Positions 14,996-29,873 are shown, counted from the first letter of the stretch. The stretch: DNA of 32,895 nt from Candidatus Saccharimonadota bacterium (GCA_020428115.1 JAGQNJ010000001.1:1-32895); one strand, 5' to 3'. The notes: generated by a model not told the origin, from the sequence alone. Translations and numbers: made by a program.

Positions 14996-17011
14996 TCAAT
15001 AGTAGTACCAGCGGTCAATACCGCCCGTGTTGGTAACGTCCACTAGTTTGCGTGGCTCGCCCCCTTGTATGTTGACCACATAGTCTGCTGTTTCTTGGTC
15101 TGTGTTTATTCGATACACAACGGTTGTGTCGTTCAGCCAGGTTATTGGAGTTGTCAGTCCACTTTGCGCAGTTATAGTCGCATCATCTTTGTTGCCGAGG
15201 TTATACACTAGCAATACGCCTTTGCCGTCGCGTTCGTCAGGCCAAATACTGTTCTCTTTGTTAGGGCTATTTACATATATACGTGACTTTTGTGTCGCAG
15301 GTGCGCCACCCATGGCATTCAGCGATCCATCAGCAAGATTGTACTCGTACCACGCCTGCCCGACCGCGATGGCAAGCTTGTTGTATTCGGTGCGGAAGAT
15401 ATTCCAAACTTCTTTGTCTATGAGAGCCTTACGGTTTTTGCCGTCGGCATCAACCACGAACAGTGCAATATTCGCGCCATCCGAAAATGCAGCAGATGGA
15501 GCGTAGTAGATCTTGTCGTTGGCTAGCACGATATCGTTAAAGTAGTTGGTGGCAGTAATCTCGGTGCTCTCGCCTGTTGCGTAGTCGTAGGTCATAAGCC
15601 GTTGTCGCTTTGGATTGTTAGTGCTGGCTCCAGCGGCAATCTGTACGTAGACGAGCTTATCGCCAACCCAGCCTACCACCTCAAATCGTTCCGACCGCCC
15701 CAGCGATACTGTTTCGTTCGTCTCTAGGTTGAGTATAGTAAGCGTGCTTAGTAGGTAACCGTCGCTGTTACGCATGTTGTCACGGGTAGATACCAGCGCC
15801 GCGACATTCTTGGTGGGGTGCGGTACAAGCACCATATCATCACGCTCCGTGCCGGTTCCGGCCAGAACAAGCTCCTCGTTTTTGCCATCAGCATCGATCT
15901 TATAGACGTCATATTTGCCCGATCGTTTGCTCACAAAGACATGCTTTTTGGCGGGAACCATTTTGACCTCAATCGCCTGGTTCGGGTCGCCAACCATCAG
16001 CTGCTCGTTGCGATAACCATCTTTGCTAATTGTTATTTCTGCATCTTCGTCGCTCTTGGTGTCTAGCGTCAGGACGAGCTTACCAGTATCGTCCGAAAAC
16101 GCACTGGCGTCTCCGCTGGTTGCCTCGGCCTTGGCGATAGGCTTATCAGACAAAAAGTCGTTAACCTGGAATGTATACTGTATGCCTGTTGGCTCCAGCT
16201 GATAATCTCCCAGCGGGTTACTGCCCCAGCCAATTGTTACTTTCTTGTCCACCTCGGCAAAGGCCCGCCGATCAATGGCCATATCCTGCTTGCCAAGCTT
16301 GAGCTTGCTCAGATACACCTGGCCTTCGTTGTCCGTAACGCCCGTCTGATTACCTATGCTTACCGTTACGTTCTTGAGCGGTTGCTGAGTACTCTGATCT
16401 AGCACCTTGAGCGATGCACGGCTGCGCACGCCAACAATATTAAGGAAAAAGTACCGTGTATTCGGTATACTCGCCAGCAGAATAATCAGTACGCCCACGC
16501 CGATGATAGTGGCCCATCGAGCCCTGGGGTTTTCCCACCACCGACGCAAAAAGTCTTTGGTCTTTTGCCAGAAACCCTGCTTTTTGTTATTGCTATCAAA
16601 GGCTCGCTCAACTGCCTCGTCTTCCGCGGCCAGCACTTCGTCACTCTCGCTTGCAGCGATATCGTCAACGGCAGTATCGAGATCTTCTTCTGAATCAGTC
16701 GCAGTATCTTGCTTGGGCTCTTCGGCAGGCTTGTCCGCGTCTGTTTTAGGCTCTTCTGGTTCGGGTTTCTCTGCAGCCTTTGCACTGTCTGCTGCGGGCA
16801 CTGGCGGCACACCCTTCATTGGGGCTTCTTCGGTTTTCGGCTCTTCGGGCTTTGGTTTGGGTTTGGGCTTGGCAGGTAGCTTTGGCTCAGGCTCGGGCGC
16901 AGCAGTTGGCGGGCTATCTTCAGGAGTCGGGCCCATGATGCCTTGTATCTTTTCATTCAGCTCTTTTTTGACTGCCTCGAGCTTGGCTTCTTTTTCTTTA
17001 TCTTCTTTCAT
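14996..17011 (-). CDS. membrane-anchored surface protein with K/P/E-rich linker and PD40/TolB-like beta-propeller region
   Basis: N-terminal KPKPKPKPEEPK low complexity and one TM (WATIIGVGVLIILLASI). Repeated DADGKN.. / VYV.. propeller-like blades in the C-terminal half. Confidence 0.7.
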   Translation of the reverse strand: MKEDKEKEAKLEAVKKELNEKIQGIMGPTPEDSPPTAAPEPEPKLPAKPKPKPKPEEPKTEEAPMKGVPPVPAADSAKAAEKPEPEEPKTDADKPAEEPKQDTATDSEEDLDTAVDDIAASESDEVLAAEDEAVERAFDSNNKKQGFWQKTKDFLRRWWENPRARWATIIGVGVLIILLASIPNTRYFFLNIVGVRSRASLKVLDQSTQQPLKNVTVSIGNQTGVTDNEGQVYLSKLKLGKQDMAIDRRAFAEVDKKVTIGWGSNPLGDYQLEPTGIQYTFQVNDFLSDKPIAKAEATSGDASAFSDDTGKLVLTLDTKSDEDAEITISKDGYRNEQLMVGDPNQAIEVKMVPAKKHVFVSKRSGKYDVYKIDADGKNEELVLAGTGTERDDMVLVPHPTKNVAALVSTRDNMRNSDGYLLSTLTILNLETNETVSLGRSERFEVVGWVGDKLVYVQIAAGASTNNPKRQRLMTYDYATGESTEITATNYFNDIVLANDKIYYAPSAAFSDGANIALFVVDADGKNRKALIDKEVWNIFRTEYNKLAIAVGQAWYEYNLADGSLNAMGGAPATQKSRIYVNSPNKENSIWPDERDGKGVLLVYNLGNKDDATITAQSGLTTPITWLNDTTVVYRINTDQETADYVVNIQGGEPRKLVDVTNTGGIDRWYYY

Positions 17012-17079
17012 TGGTAAGCATTACCTTCTTACACCCATTATAGCAAGAAGTTCTACTTACAATGACAATTTATTGCAGA

Positions 17080-17400
17080 CTAACTAGTAAGAATGGTGAT
17101 AAGACTTGGCATCAATGCATAAACCAAGATAACAGAAGCTACCGCAGCTATGGTAATCGGATCGATTCGTAGTTTTTGAGACTTTGAAAGCACGAGATAC
17201 GCGACAAATAAGGGGGCTACGACTAGCTCGACTAATATTGCCAAGCCAAAAGGGATTGAAGCCTCAATACCTGAAATATCCGTACTATTTCTGCTTACAT
17301 ACACTACTATTGCCCCACCAATAAAGAGCCCTATCTGCAGAAATGACAGAACTTTAACTACTAGTGACAGATTCTTTATTCGATTAGATTTCTTTTTCAT
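17080..17400 (-). CDS. small 3-TM membrane protein, paralog 1 (106 aa)
   Basis: Basic N-terminus MKKKSNRIKN followed by 3 hydrophobic helices. The most diverged of the three tandem copies. Confidence 0.65.
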   Translation of the reverse strand: MKKKSNRIKNLSLVVKVLSFLQIGLFIGGAIVVYVSRNSTDISGIEASIPFGLAILVELVVAPLFVAYLVLSKSQKLRIDPITIAAVASVILVYALMPSLITILTS

Positions 17401-17430
17401 TTTACTATTTTCGTATATACAGTATGTTCC

Positions 17431-17739
17431 CTAGAGAAAGAGCAGTACCACTAGGGGGAGTAAAAAAAGCAATAAAACAACTACAACCCTGCTGAAGCCT
17501 ATCCTGTTACGCTTTTGCCAAATGATGTATTCAACCAATAAAATTAAATTGACTACACTCAGGGCTAAAAAAAGCCCCCCTAGAACTACCTGGTTCCCCA
17601 GCCCATCGTATCCCTTGTCTTGGCCGTAGTTAAATAGCCAGTAGGCAACCAAATATACAATAATTTGTGCGCTTATCAGCACACTTAGCAAGACTGCTCG
17701 TGTATTTTTTTCTCTATGAGTTCGTTTATTTTGTTTCAT
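17431..17739 (-). CDS. small 3-TM membrane protein, paralog 2 (~102 aa)
   Basis: Start taken at MKQNKRTHREKN (M20 of the track ORF). GLGNQVVLGGLFLALSVVNLILLV aligns with paralog 3. Confidence 0.7.
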   Translation of the reverse strand: MKQNKRTHREKNTRAVLLSVLISAQIIVYLVAYWLFNYGQDKGYDGLGNQVVLGGLFLALSVVNLILLVEYIIWQKRNRIGFSRVVVVLLLFLLPLVVLLFL

Positions 17740-17746
17740 TTTGCCA

Positions 17747-17761
17747 TTCCCACTTATTTCC
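17747..17761 (-). repeat. conserved 15-nt leader GGAAATAAGTGGGAA, 8-22 nt upstream of the paralog 2 start
   Basis: An identical 15-mer sits at the same offset upstream of paralog 3. Confidence 0.7.
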
Positions 17762-17820
17762 TTGAACAGTCTTTTCTTAGGAAATGATGCAGGCACAGTA
17801 AGAAATATTCATACACTATC

Positions 17821-18141
17821 TCAGCTTAGAATATACGGATTGATAATAAAAATGTATGCCATTACTAATAGAAAGAGTGCTATTGCAATGTAATTAGGAC
17901 TTTCGTGCTGTTTTAAGGATCGGTATATATTTACTATCACCATGACCAAATTAGCAACACTAGTTAGAATGAAGATAATACCTAGTAGTACCTGCTGCCC
18001 AAGTCCAGTGAAATCATTATATTCTTTACCCATAAGAGCAACAGACAGCAAATAGATACCAAAAAGAATTATTGATAATACTATAGATATGGTTGCTTCT
18101 TTTCCATTGTTTATCTTTTTGCTGTACTGTTTCTTTTTCAT
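17821..18141 (-). CDS. small 3-TM membrane protein, paralog 3 (106 aa)
   Basis: MKKKQYSKKINNGK followed by 3 TM segments. Carries GLGQQVLLGIIFILTSVANLVMVI. Confidence 0.7.
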   Translation of the reverse strand: MKKKQYSKKINNGKEATISIVLSIILFGIYLLSVALMGKEYNDFTGLGQQVLLGIIFILTSVANLVMVIVNIYRSLKQHESPNYIAIALFLLVMAYIFIINPYILS

Positions 18142-18148
18142 ATTATTG

Positions 18149-18163
18149 TTCCCACTTATTTCC
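18149..18163 (-). repeat. conserved 15-nt leader GGAAATAAGTGGGAA upstream of paralog 3
   Basis: Exact copy of 17747-17761 at the same distance from the ATG. Confidence 0.7.
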
Positions 18164-18177
18164 CATACATAGTATCA

Positions 18178-20949
18178 CTATTCCGTTAATGCCTGGTTGG
18201 CAAAATTTCTACCTGTTGCACGTTCTTGAGCAGTTGTGCCATCTTGAATGGTTGCCTGATAACAGTATTGGCCTTCTGTACTCGCATTAGGGGAATTGTT
18301 CTCTACAACGCTGCCTTCAACAACTTGTCTAGGCCCAGTGTGCTGCCACCCTGACTGGCTTACTTCACAAATATAGTATGTGCCCCAATAGAGCTTATTG
18401 AACAGATACTTGCCGGGGTTAACTTCATATGCCCCAGTGGTTGTTGTTGCAACAAAACTCCATTGTTCGTCATATAAATTAATGCCCCACCCTGCCGTTG
18501 GTAGCTCGGTCTTTTGTTTGCGGCCATCGCCGTTCACATCTTCGTACACAGTGCCCGCAATGCGGCCTTCCCCAGGAGCTCGATCAATAAACCCATCACA
18601 AGCATCATCTATTTTGTCTTTGTCTATGTCTTGACCAGATTGCTCAAACGCAGGGCAACTATCATAGCCGTTCTTGATGCCATCGCCATCATAGTCGTTT
18701 GCAAAAGCTGCTACGTAAATGGTCTTGTAAACATCAATAGCTTGGCCGGTCATGTTTGTCCCGTAGATATGTAGCGTATGGAATCCAGGATCTACCGAGG
18801 GAACCCTAAATCTTGCTGTCAGATCACCATCTGTATTGGTTGTAAATGTTCCGAGTACAATTGGCTCCGAGTGTAACTCTATCTGATAGCTTGTATTTGC
18901 TGCCAGTGCATATTGATCACCATCCAGCGCAACATTCTGCAGGCGTCCTGTTATTGCAAGATCAGATGTTGCCTCAGGTGCTGCGCTAATTTCACGGATT
19001 TCCCGACCCGTACGTGGAACGTTAAGAATTGGCAGGTCGTCTGTTATAGCTGGTGGTACAGCCGCAGCATCTGGCTGGGGGTTAGCAAGCGTAAAGTTAC
19101 TGGTCTGCTCTAAAATTTTGTCTTTGTATAGTTGGTGCCCGAGTTTGTTCGGATGATAGCTTGCATTGGCTGTGGGGCCAATTCCTGATAGTGGCGAATC
19201 TCCACCCAGCGTGAGACCATTAACCGCCACAAAGTACGATTCTGTTTCGCACAACTTATGGCCTGCAAAAGCGTCCCCTACATCAACAAAGCTAACCCCG
19301 GCACTCGCTGCGGCACTTGATATCACGTTATTGAGATACTCGATCAACATGTTGGAAAATTTAACCTCTTCGCTATCAAGTCTCACATTCACTGCGCAAT
19401 TGCCATTGTTCTGGGCAATTTTTGGATAGCCCACGGCGTAAATTTTTGCATTTGAAGCAGTACTCCTAATTTTCCCGTACATACCTTTCAATTCAGCAAA
19501 CGTTTTATTAACCGTGTCGATAAGCTCAAACCTGTCTTCATATGTTGCATAGCAAGTCCCGGGAACTACTGCTAAGTTACCCACACATTTTTGTACTATT
19601 CCTCCGAACCCGATATCGTTACCACTAATGCCCACTGTAATAACATCTGGATTAACTTTGTTCACATAATGTAGTTGCTTTCTAAAACCTGGCAACATGC
19701 CACCTAGGGTGTTTGGATCTGGAATATTTACATACTGCACGTCATCAGTAATGTTCCTGACGACCGCACCCGAACATGCAACTGAATTATACGATTGTAG
19801 ATCTAGCTCCTGACCAATTAGGTACGGATACGAGACCTTCGACAAATGGCATTTGTTCTCTGGTGTATCCGTTTCTAGGAAATAATCATATGCTCCCTCG
19901 CCCGAACTATATGAATCGCCAAGCGCCAGATAGTCCTGATCCTCGATAACCGCACCTGGTGGCGCCATGCGTAACTTGCTGGTTGCGTTTGTGCCATTTA
20001 CAGTCGCGTTCACATAAAAACTAATTAAGCTATCATTAACAAAACGAGGTTGCCACGAACGCTTATAGCCAGGTATGTGCTGTGAAATTGCACTATTTAC
20101 GTCAGTATTACTACAAGCAACAGGTCCAGTGATAGCCTCTGGTACTGCTGCGCATGTCTGCGTATCAGCTATATTAAACATTCCAGTTGCAGCCGATATG
20201 ACAAATCGCCCATCATCACTAATTGCAAAGTGTGGCTTTGGATCAGATCCAAGATGATACGTGAACGGCGATCGAAACGGTGTTACCTGGTAGGAAGTAA
20301 GATCGACTTTAAGTGTGGCCAAATATTCGGAATCAACCACCATCCATTTGCCGTTTGCAGAAAATGTCATCGTGCTTGGTTTGACATATAGATCCGTTCC
20401 TGCAGCGTCCTCAAGTGTTTTTGTCGGGCTTGAGGGTAAGGTAAAGGTGACCGATTGATCAATAATGTTGGTGTCAATGCTCATAGTTCTGTTTATATTT
20501 TCATAGAAGTGCGATTTGAGCCCATTGCCAGTATTCTCGTACACTACTACTGTTTTTGAACCAGGAACTGGGACCATGCTCTGCTGTGAACCCGCGGTCG
20601 ATACGACCTTGCCGGCTACACCACTACCGTTTAATTCTATATAGCCTGCAGGATCAACCAGACCAAAATCCGTCTGCACAGCGCAAGCTTCGTGGCTCAC
20701 TTCTGCCTGTCCAAGCAGTGGAATAGCGGGTTTCGTAACGAACTTGTGTTTTGTGCAGTCTATATTGCCGTAACCAGTTATTGTCGTTGGTAATGCCTGC
20801 CCCGTCGGCAGTTGTTCTGCCTGGCTAAGTGTTGGATTACCTGGGGTTAGCCATGTGGCCAAGGTGTCGTCAGCAGCAGCCAGTTTGCCAATTCCAAATG
20901 TACAGACCAGCACCACTACTACAAGTGTTCTGAATAATTTTTGCTTCAC
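18178..20949 (-). CDS. large secreted multidomain SGNH/GDSL-type esterase/lipase
   Basis: Signal peptide MKQKLFRTLVVVVLVCTFGIGKLAAA and a propeller-like N-region. SGNH blocks LALGDSYSSGEG, GISGNDIGF and SYHPNKLGH. Asp-rich Ca-binding-type repeats (DYDGDGIKNGYDSCP, DIDKDKIDDACD) and a C-terminal Cna-B/SdrD-like YEDVNGDG domain. GTG start with SD AAGGTGG. Confidence 0.8.
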   Translation of the reverse strand: MKQKLFRTLVVVVLVCTFGIGKLAAADDTLATWLTPGNPTLSQAEQLPTGQALPTTITGYGNIDCTKHKFVTKPAIPLLGQAEVSHEACAVQTDFGLVDPAGYIELNGSGVAGKVVSTAGSQQSMVPVPGSKTVVVYENTGNGLKSHFYENINRTMSIDTNIIDQSVTFTLPSSPTKTLEDAAGTDLYVKPSTMTFSANGKWMVVDSEYLATLKVDLTSYQVTPFRSPFTYHLGSDPKPHFAISDDGRFVISAATGMFNIADTQTCAAVPEAITGPVACSNTDVNSAISQHIPGYKRSWQPRFVNDSLISFYVNATVNGTNATSKLRMAPPGAVIEDQDYLALGDSYSSGEGAYDYFLETDTPENKCHLSKVSYPYLIGQELDLQSYNSVACSGAVVRNITDDVQYVNIPDPNTLGGMLPGFRKQLHYVNKVNPDVITVGISGNDIGFGGIVQKCVGNLAVVPGTCYATYEDRFELIDTVNKTFAELKGMYGKIRSTASNAKIYAVGYPKIAQNNGNCAVNVRLDSEEVKFSNMLIEYLNNVISSAAASAGVSFVDVGDAFAGHKLCETESYFVAVNGLTLGGDSPLSGIGPTANASYHPNKLGHQLYKDKILEQTSNFTLANPQPDAAAVPPAITDDLPILNVPRTGREIREISAAPEATSDLAITGRLQNVALDGDQYALAANTSYQIELHSEPIVLGTFTTNTDGDLTARFRVPSVDPGFHTLHIYGTNMTGQAIDVYKTIYVAAFANDYDGDGIKNGYDSCPAFEQSGQDIDKDKIDDACDGFIDRAPGEGRIAGTVYEDVNGDGRKQKTELPTAGWGINLYDEQWSFVATTTTGAYEVNPGKYLFNKLYWGTYYICEVSQSGWQHTGPRQVVEGSVVENNSPNASTEGQYCYQATIQDGTTAQERATGRNFANQALTE

Positions 20950-21070: not shown

Positions 21071-21421
21071 CTACAAAGTCGAGTGGCGGTCTTTGACTGT
21101 TGATACCAAAAAGCTAACCACAACCACGGCAAGTATCGCTGCGCCCACAAATATCATCCACCCATCTAAGTGAAACCCATCGGCAGACGTTAGTGGGGTG
21201 GTCTCTGTCTGTACTTGTGCTGAACTAGTGGGTACTGCCGTGGTACTCACGGTAATAACCGCGCCATTGCTGCGAGTCTGCAGACCACTCACCCCGACCT
21301 GTCCCGCGCTGGTGGTTTGATCTGGGTTAGCCGTAGATTGCTGCAGGGCATTGCCCCAGCTGGACTGCTGCAACTGTGGTGCACCTGTCTGATTGCCTTG
21401 CGTCACTGGACCTTCCGTCAT
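21071..21421 (-). CDS. hypothetical S/T/Q-rich protein with C-terminal TM (116 aa)
   Basis: ORF with TM WMIFVGAAILAVVVVSFLV near the C-terminus. Confidence 0.55.
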   Translation of the reverse strand: MTEGPVTQGNQTGAPQLQQSSWGNALQQSTANPDQTTSAGQVGVSGLQTRSNGAVITVSTTAVPTSSAQVQTETTPLTSADGFHLDGWMIFVGAAILAVVVVSFLVSTVKDRHSTL

Positions 21422-21471
21422 GTCAAAACAGTAGCACTTTTTGGCCGTTTTACCAACCGAGCACGCCGTGA

Positions 21472-22257
21472 CTAGCCTTGCAGAGCAAGAAACTTGGCGA
21501 ACTCGTCTGGGTGCTCACACATTGCCGCAAACTCACGACTGTTGATAATGCTGTTGAACTCCGCAAATGATGTGCCTGGGTGGCTGGCCTCGAACTGATG
21601 AAACCAATCAGCGACAGCCGTAGATTGCATATTGGGTTTGGCTTGCCGACTGGCCTGGGTTATCGAATCTATGATATTTGTAGAGCCAGAACCACGCGCG
21701 CTAAGCCCGTATTTGAGCCCAACAGCGGCGCCCACAAGTGCTACGCCACCAGCAGCCACGGCCACTACTGGACGCCTGCGGGCACGTTCGATTGTGTTAT
21801 GTGCCAGCGTATTGATCTGCACTGATTTTTTGAGCAACCAGTTACTAAGTCGTCGCGGTTTAGGTACTGCATGCTCTATTGTCTGGCTTTGTGGCTGCTC
21901 TACTGGAAGCGCAGGCTCAGGTTGAGTGATTGGCGCACGACCAAGATAGGCATCGTATTCATCAACCCTACAAATCGGCTGAGCGGAACCAAGCAGTATG
22001 CGGGCGTGCCCCATATTACTCCCTAGCTCTTCGTGATAGCCTGCCCTAAACATGTATCGTGCACGGTGTACTGCGAGGCGGAATCGACCTGGGAATCTGC
22101 GTGCTGGCTGCACCTGCTCAATCGCTTGTGGCGGCTCTGGTGCAGGTGGCATTTCGCCAAATGCAACTAGCTCCTCGTATGCAGCATACTCAAGAGCCCG
22201 AGAATCTAACGCTTCGGGTTCCATGGTTTCAAACTGGCCAGGCTCTGCTGTAATCAC
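21472..22257 (-). CDS. hypothetical single-TM protein (261 aa)
   Basis: GTG start with SD aaggat. Central TM VVAVAAGGVALVGAAVGL. No recognisable motif. Confidence 0.6.
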   Translation of the reverse strand: MITAEPGQFETMEPEALDSRALEYAAYEELVAFGEMPPAPEPPQAIEQVQPARRFPGRFRLAVHRARYMFRAGYHEELGSNMGHARILLGSAQPICRVDEYDAYLGRAPITQPEPALPVEQPQSQTIEHAVPKPRRLSNWLLKKSVQINTLAHNTIERARRRPVVAVAAGGVALVGAAVGLKYGLSARGSGSTNIIDSITQASRQAKPNMQSTAVADWFHQFEASHPGTSFAEFNSIINSREFAAMCEHPDEFAKFLALQG

Positions 22258-22376
22258 TAGTAATCTATCCTTTAGACTGCTTTATTAGTTTGATTATTAT
22301 ACCTTAAAATTGGCTTTTACGCCACTCTGGCCATTGCTTTGCCCTGTCACGCCCCTGTCCACCAGAAGAAAACAAC

Positions 22377-22404
22377 TTGAGTTTATCTGTTATTTTGCTA
22401 GAAT
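22377..22404 (+). promoter_or_regulatory. candidate tRNA promoter TTGAGT-16-TAGAAT
   Basis: The box pair ends 14 nt upstream of tRNA-Phe. Confidence 0.45.
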
Positions 22405-22418
22405 AACATGGTCGATGA

Positions 22419-22494
22419 GGCGCTATAGCTCAGCTGGTAGAGCAGAGGCCTGAAGAGCCTTGTGTCCCTGGTTCGAGTCCAGGTGGCGCCACCA
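22419..22494 (+). tRNA. tRNA-Phe (GAA), CCA encoded
   Basis: Hand-folded: acceptor GGCGCTA/TGGCGCC, D GCTC/GAGC, anticodon stem GAGGC/GCCTT with loop CTGAAGA, T arm CCTGG-TTCGAGT-CCAGG. Confidence 0.9.
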
Positions 22495-22528
22495 GCAATC
22501 AGCAAATAGCGAACATATCGAACACCAT

Positions 22529-22605
22529 GCGGGTGTAGCTCAGTTGTTTAGAGCGCATCCTTGCCAAGGATGAGGCCGCGGGTTAGAGTCCCGCCACCCG
22601 CACCA
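22529..22605 (+). tRNA. tRNA-Gly (GCC), CCA encoded; atypical D- and T-loops
   Basis: Acceptor GCGGGTG/CACCCGC, D GCTC-AGTTGTTTA-GAGC, anticodon stem CATCC/GGATG with loop TTGCCAA, T arm GCGGG-TTAGAGT-CCCGC. All stems are perfect. Confidence 0.9.
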
Positions 22606-22607
22606 AA
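22585..22607 (+). repeat. direct repeat copy 1 (attL-like core): AGAGTCCCGCCACCCGCACCAAA
   Basis: The 3' 21 nt of tRNA-Gly plus 2 flanking nt, identical to 29101-29123. Confidence 0.85.
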
Positions 22608-22608
22608 T

Positions 22609-22917
22609 ATTTGAATTATGACCCGCAAGGGTCTTTTTCTTTGTCTCAACGACTGTTCTAAAGGGGTCGTTTAGTATATAAGACAACTTCTTGTCCTTTA
22701 GTTCAATGTTTGAAAGTACGTATTCTAGCAACTTCTGTCTTAGCCCCTCATCGCTCTCATTGAACAGCTGTTCAGCCCGTTGAGCCAAGTCTAACAGATA
22801 GGATGCTGTAACTTGAAAGTCTTTATTGTCGCTTGTTAGCAACTTTAGGCGGTCATTTAGCTCCTGCTGTTTCTTTTCTAGCTCAGTTGCAATTTCATCG
22901 TGGAATGTCTGTGTAAT
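22609..22917 (-). pseudogene. relic of a large serine recombinase (C-terminal ~100 codons only)
   Basis: The frame is open from 22917, with an in-frame TGA at 22918-22920. It reads ITQTFHDEIATELEKKQQELNDRLKLLTSDNKDFQVTASYLLDLAQRAEQLFNESDEGLRQKLLEYVLSNIELKDKKLSYILNDPFRTVVET. From memory this matches the coiled-coil tail pattern LLELAxxAxxLF...EKRxLLNFVLSN....L......PF of large serine recombinases. No catalytic domain lies upstream. The track ORF's last ~25 codons are antisense to tRNA-Gly. Confidence 0.5.
22620..22638 (+). terminator. short intrinsic terminator after tRNA-Gly
   Basis: GACCC-GCAA-GGGTC followed by TTTTT. Confidence 0.55.
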
Positions 22918-23184
22918 TCACCTGGACACACGACGACTTTATGAAGACTTTCTAGCATTTCTTGATAAAGAGATTGCTCAGGCAACAACCAATGTTTATG
23001 TAAAAAATGGTCTTAATATAGGTACGAAGTATCGGGGCAGACTACGTTCTGATATAGATAACTTCCCATCGTAGATTGCCTGCCAAAAAACGCTTGGCAA
23101 AGTTGCCCCCAAAAATTAGGTACTTACACGGCGGAGTACCCTTGACAGACATAAAGGGGGACTACCCCCCTGTCACTACACCAC

Positions 23185-23213
23185 TTGCATAGTACCCCCT
23201 GGGGGTATATAGT
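23185..23213 (+). promoter_or_regulatory. csoR-like gene promoter (TTGCAT-17-TATAGT) with a 15-bp palindromic operator TACCCCC-T-GGGGGTA (23193-23207) in the spacer
   Basis: Read directly from the sequence. The ATG lies 6 nt after the -10 with no SD. A second G5-ACTA-C6 inverted repeat lies at 23156-23170. Confidence 0.65.
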
Positions 23214-23219
23214 GAAAGT

Positions 23220-23504
23220 ATGATAAGCGATATAAAACAACGAGCATTGCACCGAGCCAAGATACTTGAGGGTCAGATGCGTGGTGTCCAAAAGATGATT
23301 GAAAACGAAGACTACTGTATGGATATACTCACGCAGAGCCTCGCTATCCAAAAGTCTATTGGTTCACTGAATAAGCTGATACTTGAGAACCACGTACGAA
23401 CACACATTAAAGAGAACCTTAGTTCAAGCTCAGAGAAAGCCCAAGAGCAAGCAGTTGAGGAGCTACTAGGCTTGTACGAGCTATCTAATGTAAGAAGTAA
23501 GTAA
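23220..23504 (+). CDS. CsoR/RcnR-family metal-sensing transcriptional repressor
   Basis: L.RAKILEGQMRGVQKMIEN.DYCMDILTQ..AIQ......LIL.NH...H. C33, H58 and H62 sit at the family's ligand spacings (25 and 4). Confidence 0.85.
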   Translation: MISDIKQRALHRAKILEGQMRGVQKMIENEDYCMDILTQSLAIQKSIGSLNKLILENHVRTHIKENLSSSSEKAQEQAVEELLGLYELSNVRSK

Positions 23505-23515
23505 GGAGTAAAGTG

Positions 23516-23953
23516 ATGAAAAAAGAAAGCATAATGATAGGTGTAATCGGTTTGCTCGTAGGAGTGGTCTTAACAGGTTTTACGGCAGGTCAGGCTGTGA
23601 ACAATAACAACTCTGGAATGATGCGGATGATGGGTATGGACACTAGCAAAAATGAGAAAAGTGTTGCCACTGACCACGGCACAATGTCTATGGCTGATAT
23701 GAACAAACAGCTTGAGGGTTTATCGGGTGATGATTTTGACAAGGCTTTTATTGAAATGATGATAGCTCATCACGAGGGTGCGGTTAGCATGGCTGAGCTT
23801 GTTCCATCACGTGCCAAGCATGATGAAGTAAAGAAGCTCGGCGAAGCTGTCATCGCCGCACAAACTAAAGAAATTGCCGATATGAAACAGTGGCAAAAAG
23901 ATTGGGGTTATTCATCTAATGAAATGATGGATATGATGCACGGCAGCAATTAA
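23516..23953 (+). CDS. DUF305-family protein, membrane-anchored and Met-rich
   Basis: AAGGAG lies 7 nt upstream of ATG 23516. TM anchor, GMMRMMGMD, the DUF305 core DFDKAFIEMMIAHHEGAVSMAE, and a C-terminal NEMMDMMHGSN. Confidence 0.8.
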   Translation: MKKESIMIGVIGLLVGVVLTGFTAGQAVNNNNSGMMRMMGMDTSKNEKSVATDHGTMSMADMNKQLEGLSGDDFDKAFIEMMIAHHEGAVSMAELVPSRAKHDEVKKLGEAVIAAQTKEIADMKQWQKDWGYSSNEMMDMMHGSN

Positions 23954-23955
23954 AA

Positions 23956-25974
23956 ATGGAACACTCGCACCACGAACACCAATACTCTGAGCATCAAGAA
24001 CACGACAAGCACGCTGGTCATTCGGTAGCTATGTTCAAGGATAGGTTTTGGCTATCTTTGATACTGACCATACCCGTGCTTGTCTACTCCGAGATGATAC
24101 AGCACTGGCTGAACTTCACGCCGCCAGCGTTTCCAGGTTCGCAGTATGTGCCGTTTGTCCTCAGTACAGTCATATTCTTTTACGGCGGTATGGTCTTCAT
24201 CAAGAGTGCGTGGGGCGAGCTAAAAGCTAAACTGCCAGGTATGATGACGCTCATCAGCCTGGCAATTATCACAGCGTATACGTACAGCGTCGCAACACAG
24301 TTTTTTATAAAGGGCGAAACATTCTTTTGGGAACTAGCAACGCTGGTAACAATTATGTTACTCGGTCATTGGTTAGAAATGGCATCGATTGCTAAAGCTG
24401 AAAACGCCCTTGATGCTATTTCTAAACTACTTCCTGATAAAGCCGAAAAGCTCATAAACGGTAAGCCAATGCAGGTATTGGTAAGCGAACTAAAAGTTGG
24501 CGACTTGGTACTGATACGACCTGGTGCGAGTATACCTGTTGATGGTGTAATTGTTGACGGTAGTTCATCTGTTGATGAAGCTGCTATCACTGGCGAAAGC
24601 AACCCCGTGAGCAAAACTACGAATGATGAAGTTGTTGCAGGTACGGGCAATCAAGATGGCTCTCTAACCGTTAAAGTTACGAAACTCGGTCAGGATACAG
24701 CACTTGCAGGCATTATGAGGTTAGTAGCTGAGGCACAAAGCTCAAAGTCTAACGTGCAGGTACTTGCGGATAAAGCAGCTTTTTATTTGACAGTGATAGC
24801 AATAGCTACTGCGATCGTTACTTTTATCTACTGGTTCGTAACAAAAGATGCGAACTTTGCACTTGAACGGTCAGTTACGGTTCTGATTATCGCTTGTCCG
24901 CACGCATTAGGTTTGGCGATACCTTTAGTCGTTTCAATCTCAACTACTCTGTCAGCTCGTAACGGTCTGCTAGTACGTAAACGACTTGCCCTTGAAGCTG
25001 CACGCAAACTGGATTGGGTGCTATTTGATAAGACAGGTACGTTGACTAAGGGCGAACACGGCGTAGCAGACATATGGGCTACAAAAGGCTATACAAAGGA
25101 AGACATATTGCACCTCACAGCCAGTCTTGAGCAGAGCAGTGAGCACGTTGTTGGTAAAGGTATTGTACAAAAAGCCGAGGAGCAGCACGTTCATCTTGAT
25201 AAAGTTGATAACTTCACAGCCTTGCCTGGTTTAGGTGTTCAGGGTACTTTGCACGGCAGTGAGGTGTATACCGCAGCCAGCTACCGCTATATAGAAGAAA
25301 ACAAATTAACTGTTCCAACTAAAATAGCAAAGATGGTCAAGCAAGCTGCTAAAGAGGGTAAAACCGAAGTGTATCTAATTACCAATAAAAAGGTTATTGG
25401 AGCGTTGGGCTTAGCCGATATAGTCCGCGAGCAATCAAAGCAGACTATCAAAACACTCAAGACTATGGGCATAAAGACCGCAATGATAACCGGCGACTCA
25501 GACGAGGTTGCGGCTTATGTCTCAAAACAACTTGGCTTAGACCAGTATTTTGCCGAGGTTAGACCAGAAGACAAAGCAGCAAAGGTCAAAGAATTGCAGA
25601 AAAACGGGCAACAAGTTGCAATGGTTGGCGATGGCATTAACGATGCACCTGCTCTTACACAAGCTGATATAGGTATTGCGATTGGAGCTGGTACTGACGT
25701 TGCCATCAAATCAGCAGATATTATCTTAGTAAAAAGCGACCCTCATGACGTAGTAAAGGTAATTAACCTCTCAAAACGCACATACAGCAAGATGGCTCAA
25801 AACCTAGTTTGGGCAACGGGCTATAACGTCTTTGCAATACCTTTGGCAGCTGGTGTGCTATACAGTGCAGGCATTATACTAGCTCCTGCACTTGGTGCTG
25901 TCCTAATGTCGGTTTCTACAGTTGTTGTTGCTCTCAATGCTCAGCTGCTTAGGCGTGCTGAATTAGCTGGCTAA
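23956..25974 (+). CDS. copB: P1B-type heavy-metal ATPase, CopB-like (CPH motif, His-rich N-terminus)
   Basis: 8 His in the first 22 residues. TGES, TM6 [24 protein letters not shown] and [12 protein letters not shown]. No HMA (CxxC) domain. Confidence 0.85.
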
Positions 25975-26858
25975 TGCCGCTCGTGTTCTTCGTGCTTGGT
26001 ACTGTCTTCAAGCTCAACTTCAATCGTTGAATGTCTAAAACCGTACTTATCTGCCAGTAGCTTTTTTGCTACCTCTACTGTTTGGCGACTATCTTTGTAC
26101 TTCTGTTCGTCAACAATCAAATGGCAGCTAAAGGCATAGTAGTCGTTGTCTATTGTCCAGGCGTGAATATCATCTATGCCAATGACATTTTCCAACTTCA
26201 AGAGATTATGCTTAACCAGCCGCAAGTCAATATCGCTTGGTACGCCCTCAAGTAGTATATGCAGAGCGTCTTTGATGATGCCGAATGTCGCATACAAAAG
26301 CATCACGGCAATTAGAATACCAACGGCACTATCCAGCCACGTCCAGCCGAATAGAGCGATAGCAAAACCTGCCAGCAATGCTCCGACCGAACTGAGGGTG
26401 TCGTACAGCATATTGGTGTAAGCACTGCGAGCGTTGAGATTATGGCGTTGCTTACTGAGTAAGTACGCTATGCTGCCATTTATTGTTATGCCGATGGCAG
26501 CTACTGCTGCAATGGTCAGTCCAGGCACGTCTTTAGGTTCATCTAGCCGCTGTATAGCTTCAAAGCCGATAAACGTTGCAATGGCAACCAGGATGCCAGC
26601 GTTGAGCAGTGAGGCTATGATTTTAGCCCGTCCGTAGCCGTATGAGCGTCTATTATCAGCGTGTCGCTTACCTATCCGCTCAGCGATGAGGGCAATTCCA
26701 AGTGTGAGGCTGTCTGTCAGGTTATGTGTAGCATCTGCAATAAGGGCAAGACTACCTGTGATAACACCGACCGCCATCTCAAATATCGTAAAACCCGTGT
26801 TGAGTATCAACCCTAGCTTGAACGTATTGCCGCTATCTGGTTCGTGAGTATGTGCCAT
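25971..26858 (-). CDS. cation diffusion facilitator (CDF) family exporter
   Basis: LALIADATHNLTDSL (TM2 HxxxD), SYGYGRAKI, TM5 TNMLYD, and a His-rich tail KHEEHERH. Its stop overlaps the copB stop by 4 nt (convergent). Confidence 0.85.
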   Translation of the reverse strand: MAHTHEPDSGNTFKLGLILNTGFTIFEMAVGVITGSLALIADATHNLTDSLTLGIALIAERIGKRHADNRRSYGYGRAKIIASLLNAGILVAIATFIGFEAIQRLDEPKDVPGLTIAAVAAIGITINGSIAYLLSKQRHNLNARSAYTNMLYDTLSSVGALLAGFAIALFGWTWLDSAVGILIAVMLLYATFGIIKDALHILLEGVPSDIDLRLVKHNLLKLENVIGIDDIHAWTIDNDYYAFSCHLIVDEQKYKDSRQTVEVAKKLLADKYGFRHSTIEVELEDSTKHEEHERH

Positions 26859-26864
26859 TGTTTT

Positions 26865-26870
26865 ATTCTA
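26865..26870 (-). promoter_or_regulatory. -10-like TAGAAT, 6 nt before ATG 26858 (possible internal leaderless promoter)
   Basis: Minus strand reads gcgTAGAATaaaacaATG. Confidence 0.4.
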
Positions 26871-26876
26871 CGCTCT

Positions 26877-27521
26877 CTATTGTTTTTCTGCCTCAGCGAG
26901 TGCATCGTCAATCATCTGCGATAATGCCTCAACTGATGGTGCAGTTTTTTCTACCTTTTTGCCGTTTATAGCAAATGTTGGTGTACCTGTGCCGCCTAAC
27001 TCTTTTACGTCTGCCAAGTCTTTATTGATGACAGCAGCAACGTCTGAGCTATCTCGGTCGGTACGGTATTTTTCCATATCAAGTCCGACTGCCTCAGCAT
27101 ATTGGTCAAAGTAAGTCTGTGGGTTTTGGGTTTGTTCCCAAATTTTCTGACCCTCAAATATCTTGTCGTGCATTTCCCAGAACTTACCCTGCCTTGCCGC
27201 AGCCTCGGCTGCACGAGCAGCTTGCATAGCGAATTGATGACCAGAAGTTATCGGGAAGTTGCGTACTTGAAAACGAACCTTATCTTTATATTTTTCCTTT
27301 ACCTCTTTGACATAAGGGTAGTAGGCATAACACGCCTCACACTGAAAATCTACAAACTCTGTAACTGTAACGGGGCTATCTTCTTTGCCATAGTAGTTAC
27401 TTGAACCTTGAGCAGATACCGAACCGCTGCTGTCCGATGTTTTATCCTTGTTGAACATAATAAAACCAAAAAAGCCGACTAAGATGACCGCTAATATAAT
27501 CCAAAACCTTTTGCTATCCAT
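26877..27521 (-). CDS. DsbA-family thiol:disulfide oxidoreductase, membrane-anchored
   Basis: N-terminal TM, thioredoxin-fold CxxC (FQCEACYAY) and GTPTF. SD aggag. Confidence 0.8.
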   Translation of the reverse strand: MDSKRFWIILAVILVGFFGFIMFNKDKTSDSSGSVSAQGSSNYYGKEDSPVTVTEFVDFQCEACYAYYPYVKEVKEKYKDKVRFQVRNFPITSGHQFAMQAARAAEAAARQGKFWEMHDKIFEGQKIWEQTQNPQTYFDQYAEAVGLDMEKYRTDRDSSDVAAVINKDLADVKELGGTGTPTFAINGKKVEKTAPSVEALSQMIDDALAEAEKQ

Positions 27522-27570
27522 TTTTTACTCCTGTTGAAATTAAGAAATTACCACTAAAAGTTGGTAAATC

Positions 27571-27915
27571 TCAAAACCTCAGTTGTGCCGTCAGGAGTAT
27601 GATTTTTCGTTTATGAACAAAAAGGTAGTAGACAATAGGGGCTACATATAAGGCAGTGAAGTTGATTGGTATTTGTTGCCAATATAAGAGTGGCGGTGTT
27701 GGTTCTTTATCGTCTTCATCCTTTTCATCTCTAAGGCTACTGATAGCCGCTGGTTGACCGTGTGATGTACAGGAAGTGTTGCAGCCTTTTTGTGCCAAAC
27801 TACCAGCATTTATTTCACTGGTATGACTAAACGTAGCCAAAGAACAGACAGTCAAAACAGCACCGACTACCAATGCCAGTGTAATAACGCTTAAATGTTT
27901 GCCTAACCGCCGCAC
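27571..27915 (-). CDS. small two-TM hypothetical protein with an external CX3C and acidic loop
   Basis: TM1 ITLALVVGAVLTV, loop ..KGCNTSCTSHG..DEKDEDDKE, TM2 FTALYVAPIVYYLFV. Confidence 0.55.
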   Translation of the reverse strand: MRRLGKHLSVITLALVVGAVLTVCSLATFSHTSEINAGSLAQKGCNTSCTSHGQPAAISSLRDEKDEDDKEPTPPLLYWQQIPINFTALYVAPIVYYLFVHKRKIILLTAQLRF

Positions 27916-28769
27916 GTGCTATCCGATAACGGCTCAAGGTCATTGAACCTTTCTTTTATTTGCTGGTCAGTCGGCTTGTCTTTCTGCACGAAGATAACGA
28001 CATTACCAATCATATTGTTGATACGGGTCAGTTTTTCTTCTTCGGTTTCTTCGCCCGGCTCGCCATCGTTTCCGTCTTCAACACCGCCGTGGGCTGATGC
28101 TTTAGGAAATACTCTATCTAGCAAGCTGGTCTGCTTGTTCTGCTCGTGAGCTGGGAAATTGCTGGTATTGCCAAAGAACTGCTCTAAGTCTTGATTTTTC
28201 CAGTCATCAAAACTCTTTTCCTGATAGTCGCTCTCGTTACCTGTATAGATATAAAATTGTGCGTCATCAGGTGCGGCTGGCAGGAAGTTGCCGTGCGTGT
28301 TGACCTTTTGAACATCCATTAGGTTGTCTAGCTTGTAACCTAGTGCCTTATTGATACCGCCAATATAGTTCCAGCCGTAATACTTCATTACCATACCGCC
28401 AGTCATACCTTCCCAGTGAATGTGCGTAAACTGGTCTTTTTGGTCGTGGAAGTGGATAGGTTGCTCAGGCAGGTTGGCGTTGCACTGGTCTTTGGCGTAA
28501 TCTTGCTGGTACTTATCTTCGGCAAAGTTCTCAGCCTTACCGTTTACCAATATCTGCATACGGAAATGGTAATGCTCTAGCTTCGGCTCTCGTATAACAG
28601 TTGGGGTTGCGGCGTAAATATAGCCCGCATAGGATAGCGGAACGATAAGTATGGCTATCAAAACTATCGCAATTATCTTGAAACGCTTACTCAAAGTCCG
28701 TTTTTTGGCGGTCTTCGGCTTTTTATTTTCAATACTCTCAATAACTTCATCATCACTTTTTTCAGACAT
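27903..28769 (-). CDS. membrane-anchored hypothetical protein with paired His motifs
   Basis: TM IIAIVLIAILIVPL, then EHYHFRMQILVNGK and PIHFHDQKDQFTHIHWEG, an acidic region, and a C-terminal STCGG. Confidence 0.65.
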   Translation of the reverse strand: MSEKSDDEVIESIENKKPKTAKKRTLSKRFKIIAIVLIAILIVPLSYAGYIYAATPTVIREPKLEHYHFRMQILVNGKAENFAEDKYQQDYAKDQCNANLPEQPIHFHDQKDQFTHIHWEGMTGGMVMKYYGWNYIGGINKALGYKLDNLMDVQKVNTHGNFLPAAPDDAQFYIYTGNESDYQEKSFDDWKNQDLEQFFGNTSNFPAHEQNKQTSLLDRVFPKASAHGGVEDGNDGEPGEETEEEKLTRINNMIGNVVIFVQKDKPTDQQIKERFNDLEPLSDSTCGG

Positions 28770-28775
28770 ATGCTT

Positions 28776-28781
28776 ATTATA
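28776..28781 (-). promoter_or_regulatory. -10 TATAAT, 6 nt before ATG 28769
   Basis: Minus strand reads TATAATaagcatATG with no SD. Confidence 0.55.
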
Positions 28782-28883
28782 AACTATCTATCTGTTTGAA
28801 AGCAGGGCGGACTTATATCAAATTATCAGCAAGTCGGAATTGTTCAGCCAGATGTTTTAGCTTATAATCCTCTTGAGCAAGCG

Positions 28884-28952
28884 TAGCTGCCGTTTGAAAT
28901 GCGTCAACTATGTTGCACCAACTGAAGGACCAGACTATATGTCTGGTTTTTT
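28884..28952 (+). ncRNA. module A: 38-nt conserved core plus intrinsic terminator (candidate sRNA; alternatively a gene relic)
   Basis: Core 28884-28921. Hairpin ACCAGAC-TATAT-GTCTGGT plus a T-run at 28929-28952. Possible promoter TTGTTC-17-TATAAT at 28840-28868. Confidence 0.4.
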
Positions 28953-29100
28953 AGTTGGTATGAATGCTGGTTCAAACTCGCGGCCGATGAGGTCGGGGGT
29001 GAGAACAGCCTGATGGTTGTTCGCAAGGCCGGAGCCAAGGCGAAAATTATTTCCCTTGGCGAGGCATGCCGAAAAGTTCAGCAAAGCTGAAACTTTTGGG

Positions 29101-29123
29101 AGAGTCCCGCCACCCGCACCAAA
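29101..29123 (+). repeat. direct repeat copy 2 (attR-like core), an orphan tRNA-Gly 3' fragment
   Basis: Identical to 22585-22607. No D arm, anticodon arm or proper T-stem lies upstream. Confidence 0.85.
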
Positions 29124-29128
29124 ATAAG

Positions 29129-29155
29129 AACTCCCCTTTCGGGAGTTTTTGTTTT
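29129..29155 (+). terminator. strong intrinsic terminator directly after the orphan tRNA 3' fragment
   Basis: AACTCCC-CTTTC-GGGAGTT followed by TTTTGTTTT. Confidence 0.7.
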
Positions 29156-29182
29156 GGTAATGGGGCGGCTCAGCAGATAAGA

Positions 29183-29653
29183 TTACACGCTTGTTGAACG
29201 AAGATGACGGTTGATTTTCCAGATATCAATAAGATCTTTTGGGCGACCAGTACCACATGACTTTGCCTTCCTAATTGCTGCGAGCGTTCGACAGTGAAGA
29301 GTTAGCCCATCAACTGTTAATTGATCAGTCTTTGCAAGCTCCTCTTCAAGATCATAGGGAACACTTAAGTCTACACGTAATCCCCCAGGGGTAACCCTGT
29401 CTGGTGTGACGAGTCGGGGCGGATATGTGACACCACGGATCCTCGTCTCTTTAATCTCTACCGACTGTCCGTTAGGTAATTGGCTGGCTTGCTCAATATG
29501 TTTAAAGACATCTAGATCTACGAGCAGATCAACATCATTAGCCTTACGAATGCCGTGTATTGCCAGGACACTGCCACCGAATACTATGGCTTGATCTAGG
29601 TTGAGCCCACAGTTCTCAAGAGTTGTAGTAACTGGTTCGATATACCGATTCAC
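29183..29653 (-). CDS. minimal nucleotidyltransferase-fold protein (156 aa)
   Basis: GGSVLAIHGIRKANDVDLLV matches the GS-x(9-11)-DxD pol-beta NTase signature. GTG start. Confidence 0.6.
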   Translation of the reverse strand: MNRYIEPVTTTLENCGLNLDQAIVFGGSVLAIHGIRKANDVDLLVDLDVFKHIEQASQLPNGQSVEIKETRIRGVTYPPRLVTPDRVTPGGLRVDLSVPYDLEEELAKTDQLTVDGLTLHCRTLAAIRKAKSCGTGRPKDLIDIWKINRHLRSTSV

Positions 29654-29660
29654 ATTTATT

Positions 29661-29666
29661 ATTATA
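29661..29666 (-). promoter_or_regulatory. -10 TATAAT, 7 nt before GTG 29653
   Basis: Minus strand reads TTGTATAATaataaatGTG. Confidence 0.45.
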
Positions 29667-29800
29667 CAATTTATTCAAACTATTACAAATATTGCCTGCC
29701 TTAAGATTCGACATTAGTACAGTAAGGGTTCATATTATGCTGTTGTCTAGATTGAATATCACTGCAAGATTACTGAGTAATGGATTGTTAACTTGTTCAA

Positions 29801-29873
29801 TAGCTGATGTTTGAAATGCATCAACTATCTTTCACCAAGTAAAGCGTCTCAGCTATGCTGGGGCTTTTTATTT
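29801..29873 (+). ncRNA. module B: second copy of the 38-nt core plus an intrinsic terminator
   Basis: Core 29801-29838 is 33/38 identical to module A. The hairpin and T-run at 29846-29873 start 7 nt after the core, the same offset as in A. Confidence 0.4.

Follow-up and report, generated by a model that had tools for sequence, protein, structure and literature searches.

In tRNA and transfer-messenger RNA (tmRNA) islands of the Islander type, moved by tyrosine integrases, a direct repeat made by the displaced fragment of the target gene is the standard signature (PMC4383910). In mycobacteriophage BPs and its relatives, the phage attachment site attP lies inside a gene, and immunity depends on integration (PMC4557955). 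Features recalling both systems occur at one locus of Candidatus Saccharimonadota, in a stretch of 32,895 nucleotides (GCA_020428115.1, JAGQNJ010000001.1:1-32895; hereafter the window), where an intact tRNA-Gly(GCC) gene is followed by a run of metal-efflux genes and then by an orphan copy of the tRNA 3′ end. The locus resembles a textbook tRNA integration, and an interpretation made from the DNA alone, which we call the sequence-only reading, took it for an island bounded by the two copies. Our analysis corrects both the boundary and the mechanism. The metal genes are very probably cargo, carried by a site-specific integrative element that a large serine recombinase (LSR) moves and that belongs to a Saccharibacteria-wide family inserting at tRNA-Gly. 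A displaced-fragment repeat beside a tRNA can thus mislead island callers if the recombinase is of the serine type.

The recombinase relic and the ends of its element

The gene that identifies the element is the truncated LSR that runs antisense into tRNA-Gly (Table 1). Over its 125 amino acids it is 100% identical to residues 329-453 of a near-intact LSR on the metagenomic contig L015, which matches window positions 21083-22917 at 99.9% and then runs on into an LSR body that the window lacks. Because L015 matches up to 22917 and then continues, the window copy is, to all appearances, a deletion derivative, and near-intact and deleted forms coexist in one sample, the source metagenome of L015 also holding the island-bearing contig L007. 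Homology to every intact LSR relative ends at the same nucleotide, 22917. Pfam finds no domain in the relic, and the N-terminal resolvase domain PF00239 with its Ser nucleophile is not retained; intact relatives have PF00239 with an ARVSD motif, together with PF07508 and, in some, PF13408, and what the window keeps is only the region past the zinc ribbon. Absent at the deletion, besides the LSR body, are four core genes and an HTH_17 gene resembling an excisionase, and no excisionase or directionality factor lies between 22607 and 28921, intact relatives having the HTH_17 gene in this role. The interval 22918-23219 was considered as a further recombinase pseudogene and rejected, since it has no similarity to one. 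The sequence-only reading was right to place a recombinase relic beside the tRNA; it is of the LSR type, and the window element reads as a defective member of an LSR-element family.

That family is large, with 880 matches at E ≤ 1e-20 that carry PF00239 and PF07508. On the long contigs of relatives P0002, P0008 and P0014, the recombinase gene converges on and abuts tRNA-Gly(GCC) in every case. Among the 120 best relatives, 100 have the ending ..WC.., encoded by TGGTGC, the reverse complement of the GCACCA with which the window's tRNA-Gly(GCC) terminates and which forms the recombination core; in 87 of those 100 the protein goes on as WCG or WCE, the continuation expected where the open reading frame (ORF) enters tRNA-Gly antisense. 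The csoR-DUF305-ATPase module of the window is found inside intact elements at tRNA-Gly in CP005957 (Ca. Saccharimonas aalborgensis), in CP065015 and on a 1.19-Mb JGI contig, and CDF genes accompany it in the first two. The intact layout runs tRNA-Gly, LSR, a 375-aa gene, a SpoVG-like gene, a 69-aa gene, a 534-aa gene, the excisionase-like HTH_17 gene and then the cargo. Between the window and the intact elements, nucleotide identity is 79-83% over the csoR promoter, the csoR gene and the ATPase gene. Other elements of the LSR family bear restriction-modification or other cargo. The literature on Saccharibacteria serine recombinases, tRNA-Gly or copper islands yielded no description of this element family. 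A sister group was seen among the same relatives: 14 of the 120 (P0057, P0061-P0064, P0068-P0070 and others) end in WQG, mostly as WQGWQESNPRP..., which corresponds to a different tRNA's 3′ end (..CCTGCCA) read in antisense, so that this group appears to target another tRNA.

The limits of the element follow from its distal end. Every element whose distal end is visible closes in a conserved P arm of ~105 bp, ..GTTTGAAATrCGTCAACTATnnTGCACCA, which terminates at GCACCA in L030, L033, L034, L035, L036 and the window; the window holds one good P arm (28816-28921) and one decayed (29733-29837). On its minus strand the good arm is an open frame of 35 codons, WCNIVDAFQTAATLAQEDYKLKHLAEQFRLADNLI*, and this frame is the C-terminal tail of the LSR in junction or attP copies. 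The window peptide is 94% identical to the tail of relative P0004 (E 3e-19), and the same peptide ends P0004, P0013, P0030, P0079 and P0108, whose ORFs miss the tRNA. The ratio of nonsynonymous to synonymous substitution (dN/dS) between P-arm-encoded tails is 0.14-0.54 in pairwise comparison. On contig L037 the P arm (window 28812-28921, 92.7%) is joined directly to the LSR 3′ end (window 22600-22917, 93.4%), the two matches overlapping by GCACCAA. To judge from its structure, this junction is either attP or a tandem junction, and either way the unit would run from P′ arm to P arm with a core of 6-7 nt. The window element would therefore span 22600/22607 to 28914/28921, or 6.3 kb. A P-core-P′ junction thus exists, and attL and attR (cores at 22600-22606 and 28915-28921) share the short core only; both att sites of the window copy are apparently intact. 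The P′ arm sequence also follows tRNA-Gly in L033, L030 and L037, and its hairpin, 22620-22633, doubles as recombinase coding sequence (..KKTLAG..). The idea that the intact tRNA now uses an island-supplied hairpin holds up well, since that hairpin is part of the P′ arm.

The position of the core inside an ORF has a consequence for the recombinase itself. Integrated LSR ORFs have no stop before the core and read on into tRNA-Gly antisense (..IWCGWRDSNPRP..), and junction or attP copies, including L037-L039, read the 35 conserved P-arm codons in place of the tRNA antisense. As the ORF crosses the attachment core without a stop, integration would rewrite the recombinase C-terminus. The proposed mechanism is as follows. 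The LSR would recombine the very end of tRNA-Gly(GCC), on its 3′ side, with a site carried by the circular element, P arm - GCACCAA - P′ arm, in which the P′ arm is part of the 3′ end of the LSR gene itself. The tRNA would stay intact because the crossover would fall in or beside the terminal GCACCA, and the trailer alone would be exchanged for the element-borne hairpin. Lost in the deletion ending at 22917 would be the LSR's catalytic and DNA-binding parts, along with the four core genes and the helix-turn-helix gene resembling an excisionase. The window copy presumably moved in the past; with the LSR body and excisionase gone, it would be unable to move on its own.

Relatives without the element are consistent with insertion. 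In L032 the tRNA-Gly region, an 83-nt stretch identical to the window's and shared with L001, is followed by a hairpin and, ~150 bp on, by a homolog of the DUF1428 gene that the window has 1.1 kb past the orphan. In L002, tRNA-Gly, 0.9 kb and a DUF5679 homolog lead to tRNA-Cys/Leu as in the window. Both come from species other than the window's. Relatives that lack the insertion thus exist, but no empty site was found in the same species. By tetranucleotides, the element is the most atypical 6.3 kb of the window, in keeping with the horizontal acquisition that had been suggested: with a segment of 6.3 kb slid along the sequence, the distance is greatest exactly there, at 0.22-0.23 versus 0.12-0.17 elsewhere.

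Several observations weigh against this account. For a same-species empty site, the exact pattern (tRNA T arm, repeat, then 29124 onward) had 0 matches in the JGI metagenomes; there the tRNA-allele pattern had a single match, the distant relative L032, and contigs with the neighboring 156-aa gene, if long enough, all hold the element's right end. The attP-junction pattern had 0 matches in IMG/VR viral contigs. Junction contigs L037-L039 showed no terminal overlaps when checked for circularity, and L037 may be the junction of a tandem array rather than of a free circle, being too short to distinguish the two. The GC content of the element is within 2 points of that of the flanks. Finally, the LSR-element model gives no explanation of how the 23-nt orphan arose.

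The orphan repeat and probable accretion at tRNA-Gly

The repeat on which the sequence-only reading was built is real. The exact 23-mer AGAGTCCCGCCACCCGCACCAAA occurs twice on the + strand of the window, at 22585-22607 and 29101-29123, where chance predicts 0 copies (100 shuffles); no third match appears in the window with up to 3 mismatches allowed, and the flanking bases of the two copies differ on either side, so that its length is exactly 23 nt. The description of the distal copy as an orphan also stands, since no tRNA, tmRNA or other Rfam family covers it (ARAGORN, and Rfam even at E ≤ 10). A wider Rfam search, of 28850-29250 and of the comparable module on L040 (tmRNA, signal recognition particle RNA and all families), gave chance-level matches only. 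In GTDB genomes a 21-mer of the repeat has only 4 matches, with a second copy in none of them. What does not survive is the assignment of the two copies as attL and attR: the recombinase is of the serine type, the sites share only GCACCA(A), and the distal end is the P arm. Thus, the proposal of an island in the tRNA-Gly 3′ end is upheld in that a mobile element lies between tRNA and orphan and revised in its boundaries, which are 22600-28921.

The orphan begins 180 bp beyond the P-arm core, at the end of module X (Table 1), whose layout recurs in L030 and L040. The stretch 28953-29123 folds at -75.2 kcal/mol, with a z score of -5.25. In L040 (GCA_964629815.1, 9500-9935), a tRNA-Arg(TCG) is followed by a terminator, ~130 nt and an exact 18-nt orphan of that tRNA's 3′ end; the orphan lies 153 nt downstream, and no element intervenes. 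L030 (GCA_964557445.1) has an intact element flanked by tRNA-Gly and by a 22-nt orphan that agrees with the tRNA allele of L030 itself, and at 976-1155 of that locus an exact inverted copy of tRNA-Gly nt 40-59 sits between P arm and orphan. Intact elements in L033 and L035 finish with the P arm, and no orphan lies near them. Because LSR tails diverge after WC, because L033 and L035 lack an orphan and because L040 has an orphan without an element, the 23-mer, genuine as it is, does not appear to be the boundary of the LSR element.

Some smaller features of these modules may be recorded. The L040 orphan is preceded by a 46-nt fragment resembling the 5′ part of tRNA-Arg, fused to TGAGAACAATCAGTGATTGTTCGCAAGGC, which window positions ~28998-29027 (TGAGAACAGCCTGATGGTTGTTCGCAAGGC) resemble, the changes in the hairpin being compensatory. 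The L030 inverted copy overlaps the start of the orphan by TAGAG, and past the orphan comes another inverted copy, which is degenerate. A decayed tRNA body was also considered for the stretch preceding the orphan and rejected, as that stretch aligned no better than shuffles (p 0.06-0.16 in the window, p 0.35 in L040); among such alignments only the L030 inverted 20-mer was significant.

Beyond the orphan, strains differ. Window positions 29124-29821 are replaced in L021 (198-2512) by a different 2.3-kb segment, V′, which also occurs in L020, L022, L023 and L025 and holds, besides a DUF4287 or DUF1801 gene, ORFs of 114, 223 and 159 aa. The two segments part exactly at the GCACCA of the orphan and, at 29822, within the decayed P arm, itself similar to the tail of P0030 (E 3e-6). 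Since strains differ exactly from the orphan's GCACCA to that decayed arm, 29124-29837 looks like a second, older element remnant, which we call V. The hairpin after the orphan had been taken for the native terminator of the tRNA; strains diverge from exactly that point on, as L021 shows, which argues against it. A search with the 114-aa gene of V′ turned up no closer strain, though it brought to light the tRNA-Arg orphan of L040.

Variation of this kind is seen on the tRNA side as well. Contig L006 (ERZ28660125 scaffold_1436) matches the island at 99.4% identity but has another allele of tRNA-Gly (acceptor GCGAGAC/GTCTCGC), so that the 23-nt repeat is imperfect there; its homology with the window stops exactly at the start of tRNA-Phe (window 22419), upstream of which are unrelated genes (MazG, NUDIX, LemA and M48, as in L030). 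L014 (ERZ28660125 scaffold_5867, 1-128) has the window's upstream flank and both tRNAs, then the 3′ end of a different LSR variant, a sign that elements of two types occupy the site within one sample. Tandem arrays are present in S. aalborgensis CP005957 (L033 12138-13706) and in L035 (~13740-13766 and 15864-15892). From the L006 and L014 variation and these arrays, the tRNA-Gly end is, by all indications, a hot spot of repeated integration and replacement, and the window locus would be an accretion site, made of the element, then a structured module of ~200 bp ending in the orphan, then the decayed remnant. Two details of the arrays may be added: the frame of another serine recombinase, of 522 aa, enters the metal element's P arm in S. 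aalborgensis, and L035 has at least 3 junctions resembling a P arm, one of its units containing a gene for aldehyde dehydrogenase.

How, then, did the orphan come to be there? It is possible, although we are far from persuaded, that 28922-29123 is the last trace of an older, nearly deleted island of the T-loop type, and that insertion of the LSR element, between this trace and the regenerated tRNA, came afterward. The orphan does begin in the T loop and is an exact fit to the resident allele of the tRNA, in three genomes and for two tRNA species, and the inverted tRNA copy of L030, overlapping the orphan by TAGAG, would suit such a history. Yet an integrase or other island gene remains in 0 of the 3 cases, the three remnants are alike in their small size (~130-180 nt), which is odd for independent decay, and the segment is strongly structured, as its z score indicates.

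Also doubtful, but with evidence of its own, is the notion that the orphan, as a copy of the LSR B half-site plus core, is kept as a secondary attachment site with V and V′ as its occupants. An LSR attB half-site is about as long as the orphans, 21-23 nt, and the strain variation starts exactly past the orphan's GCACCA and ends in a decayed P arm. The minus strand to the right of the orphan, ..TKQKLPKGEFLFWCG, is even similar to the C-termini of LSRs (a small search gave P0089 at E 8e-4), but this match is short and partly driven by tRNA antisense. Moreover, the difference between V and V′ could equally come from homologous replacement between strains, and duplication of a half-site would need a mechanism, of which we know none.

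A more speculative extension, to which we give little weight, is that the tRNA-Gly locus is a self-organizing accretion site. The swap of the tail, from the conserved 35 aa to tRNA-antisense codons, could switch the recombinase between integration-competent and integrated states, and the 18-23-nt orphans with their structured leaders of ~150 nt could be maintained units, either secondary landing pads or structured RNAs with a tRNA-identical 3′ end, rather than scars. Both would be undescribed.

The account closest to the sequence-only reading, that 22608-29100 entered as one unit by a T-loop crossover within the 23-nt identity, leaving as the orphan the native 3′ end, displaced and with the native terminator behind it, is very improbable. 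The repeat is exact and is not expected by chance, repeats of this type are the standard mark of tRNA islands (PMC4383910), and in L030 an intact element of the same family does lie between tRNA-Gly and an exact 22-nt orphan. However, the sole recombinase is of the serine type, and no tyrosine integrase (no phage-integrase domain) was found in the window ORFs scanned. The junction copies of the LSR diverge right after WC, which is to say after GCACCA, and 0 of the 120 relatives diverge after the T-loop position. In L037 it is the P arm that is joined to the LSR, and not the DNA beside the orphan; the P arm also closes the intact elements of L033 and L035, near which no orphan lies; L040 has tRNA and exact orphan with nothing inserted between; and contig L021 begins 4 nt past the P-arm core. 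The proposition that nothing here is mobile, the metal genes being an ancestral chromosomal operon and the repeats incidental debris, can draw on a GC content near that of the flanks and on an ATPase almost universal in related genomes, but it has next to no chance against a recombinase relic with an identical intact counterpart, the same cargo within intact elements with conserved ends at the same tRNA, relatives with tRNA-Gly and no segment, and a composition peak that coincides with the segment.

Metal-efflux cargo and feature coordinates

The LSR element, as we delimit it, carries a set of genes whose Pfam and NCBIfam assignments agree with the coherent metal-efflux cargo claimed by the sequence-only reading (Table 1). 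At its head is the CsoR/RcnR-family repressor. The RicR, FrmR and RcnR models all score it below cutoff, and its residues at the expected ligand spacing, C33, H58 and H62 as read from the translation, come nearer to the RcnR-type pattern. Just 5′ of the gene lie the palindrome AGGGGGACTACCCCCCT (23155-23171) and the perfect palindrome TACCCCCTGGGGGTA (23193-23207). G/C-tract palindromes are the kind of site that CsoR proteins bind, and these two are likely operators of the repressor gene. The ATPase exceeds its cutoffs, with 589 bits on TIGR01511 (cutoff 397) and 596 bits on TIGR01525 (cutoff 346); its translation has FDKTGTLT and ACPHALG, and source records name its relatives CopB or Cu2+-exporting ATPase. 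A 279-aa homolog of the 288-aa membrane protein adjoins the ATPase in L035. By family membership, the CopB-like pump would export Cu and the CDF protein Zn/Co-type cations. The CsoR-family repressor, acting on the G/C-tract palindromes, would control the DUF305/CopM-like protein and the CopB-type Cu ATPase, with the CDF exporter, the DsbA-like oxidoreductase and two membrane proteins accompanying the controlled genes.

Table 1. Features of the tRNA-Gly locus, in window coordinates
Feature	Position	Strand	Basis or remark
Intact tRNA-Gly(GCC), integration target	22529..22605	+	ARAGORN; Rfam tRNA 72.9 bits
LSR relic, last 125 codons, antisense into tRNA, no stop before tRNA	22540..22917	-	Match to L015 LSR
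Proximal copy of 23-nt repeat, T loop through CCA plus AA	22585..22607	+	
attL core GCACCAA	22600..22606	+	Shared with attR core and L037 P-arm/LSR junction
P′ arm, element-supplied, terminator-like hairpin 22620-22633	22607..22640	+	Minus strand encodes ..KKKTLAGHNSNI of recombinase
Filler at deletion junction	22918..23085		No match to intact elements; no LSR similarity
csoR promoter region, two G/C-tract palindromes	23086..23219	+	Sequence; 83% identical to L033 8465-8806, upstream of csoR in Ca. S. aalborgensis
CsoR/RcnR-family metal-sensing repressor	23220..23504	+	PF02583, 1.4e-21, 77 bits
Met-rich DUF305/CopM-like protein with signal anchor	23513..23953	+	PF03713, 3.2e-36; CopM domain, 1.6e-17
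Copper-type P1B ATPase, His-rich N-terminus, CPH motif, DKTGT	23956..25974	+	TIGR01511
CDF cation-efflux transporter	25971..26858	-	PF01545, PF16916; TIGR01297, 253 bits
DsbA-like thioredoxin-fold protein, CEAC motif	26877..27521	-	PF13462, PF01323
114-aa membrane protein, no family	27571..27915	-	
288-aa His-rich membrane-anchored protein, no family	27903..28769	-	
P arm, distal element end	28816..28921	-	attR core GCACCAA at 28915-28921
Module X: hairpin ~28930-28952, then ~150 nt strongly structured, leading into orphan	28922..29100	+	
Distal copy of repeat, orphan tRNA-Gly 3′ fragment, 23 nt	29101..29123	+	
Remnant V, probable second, older element	29124..29837		Hairpin 29129-29147; 156-aa ORF 29183-29653 (minus); decayed P arm 29733-29837, core TCACCAA

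The cargo had been called unusual for a reduced genome of the candidate phyla radiation type, and this does not hold: the ATPase has more than 100 protein-cluster representatives at 89-95% identity, whose named sources are all Saccharibacteria, and it is carried by the intact elements of S. aalborgensis. Nothing marks the element as a prophage, an identity that was considered and dropped; with PHROGs, only the HTH_17 gene among the core genes of intact elements has matches (excisionase families), and phage structural genes are absent. Two observations stand apart. In L035 (5060-6712) and L036 (708-2255), metal-cargo elements of two other genomes have a 515-550-aa protein with a weak reverse-transcriptase (RVT_1) match beside the excisionase-like gene. 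Elsewhere in the window, 17000-18500 has a GC content of 0.37-0.38, against ~0.46 in the rest, and small ORFs (106-121 aa), of which that at 17080-17400 has no Pfam match.

The Cu and Zn efflux genes of these ultra-small bacteria would thus travel on one widespread LSR family aimed at the CCA end of tRNA-Gly, the type genome of Ca. S. aalborgensis included, and it is this travel that would make the pumps ~90% identical across otherwise diverged genomes. On the present evidence the window copy is a defective but otherwise ordinary island of its kind, curious chiefly for the tail swap and the tRNA orphans. An LSR whose natural attB/attP pair is defined has practical value as a possible tool for integration, and to our knowledge none has been established for the Saccharibacteria phylum.

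Comparison with known systems

Among described systems, staphylococcal cassette SCCmec, moved by CcrA/CcrB into the 3′ end of rlmH/orfX, offers a close likeness to the window family. In both, an LSR puts an island with resistance cargo at the extreme 3′ end of a housekeeping gene that is kept active, the ends share a short core only, and elements and remnants accumulate in tandem. Moreover, of the curated NCBIfam models, CcrA matches the intact relative P0004 best (1.9e-18), with XisF next; but at 66.8 bits on the CcrA model, against a cutoff of 700, P0004 is not a Ccr. The target and the enzymes also differ, SCCmec having a protein-gene target and a ccrAB pair and the window family a tRNA gene end and one recombinase gene. 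Unlike in SCCmec, the recombinase ORF of the window family crosses the attachment site, and the hosts are Saccharibacteria.

The islands of the Islander type share with the window the general plan, an island with a recombinase gene beside a tRNA that stays functional and, further out, a fragment that looks like a displaced 3′ end. They differ in having a tyrosine integrase and a crossover in the anticodon or T loop, whereas the window has a serine type with the crossover probably at the terminal GCACCA. In Islander-type islands the displaced fragment marks the end; in the window the end would be the P arm, 180 bp inside the fragment, with an identity block of 6-7 nt. Mycobacteriophage BPs resembles the window family in that an att site lies in coding sequence and integration alters the C-terminus of a protein. 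There, however, the repressor gene is affected and the integrase is of the tyrosine type, while in the window family the last 35 codons of the recombinase itself are replaced by tRNA antisense.

As for the cargo, the likeness is to CsoR-regulated Cu operons. As in these, a CsoR-family repressor stands upstream of a P1B ATPase, with G/C-tract palindromes in the promoter, and the ATPase shares its His-rich N-terminus and its CPH motif with CopB-type pumps, the P1B-3 class. The Cu(I) ligands of CsoR are Cys-His-Cys, where the window repressor has Cys33, His58 and His62. A DUF305/CopM-like protein stands where such operons have the CopZ chaperone, and the window adds a CDF exporter, a DsbA-like protein and two membrane proteins.

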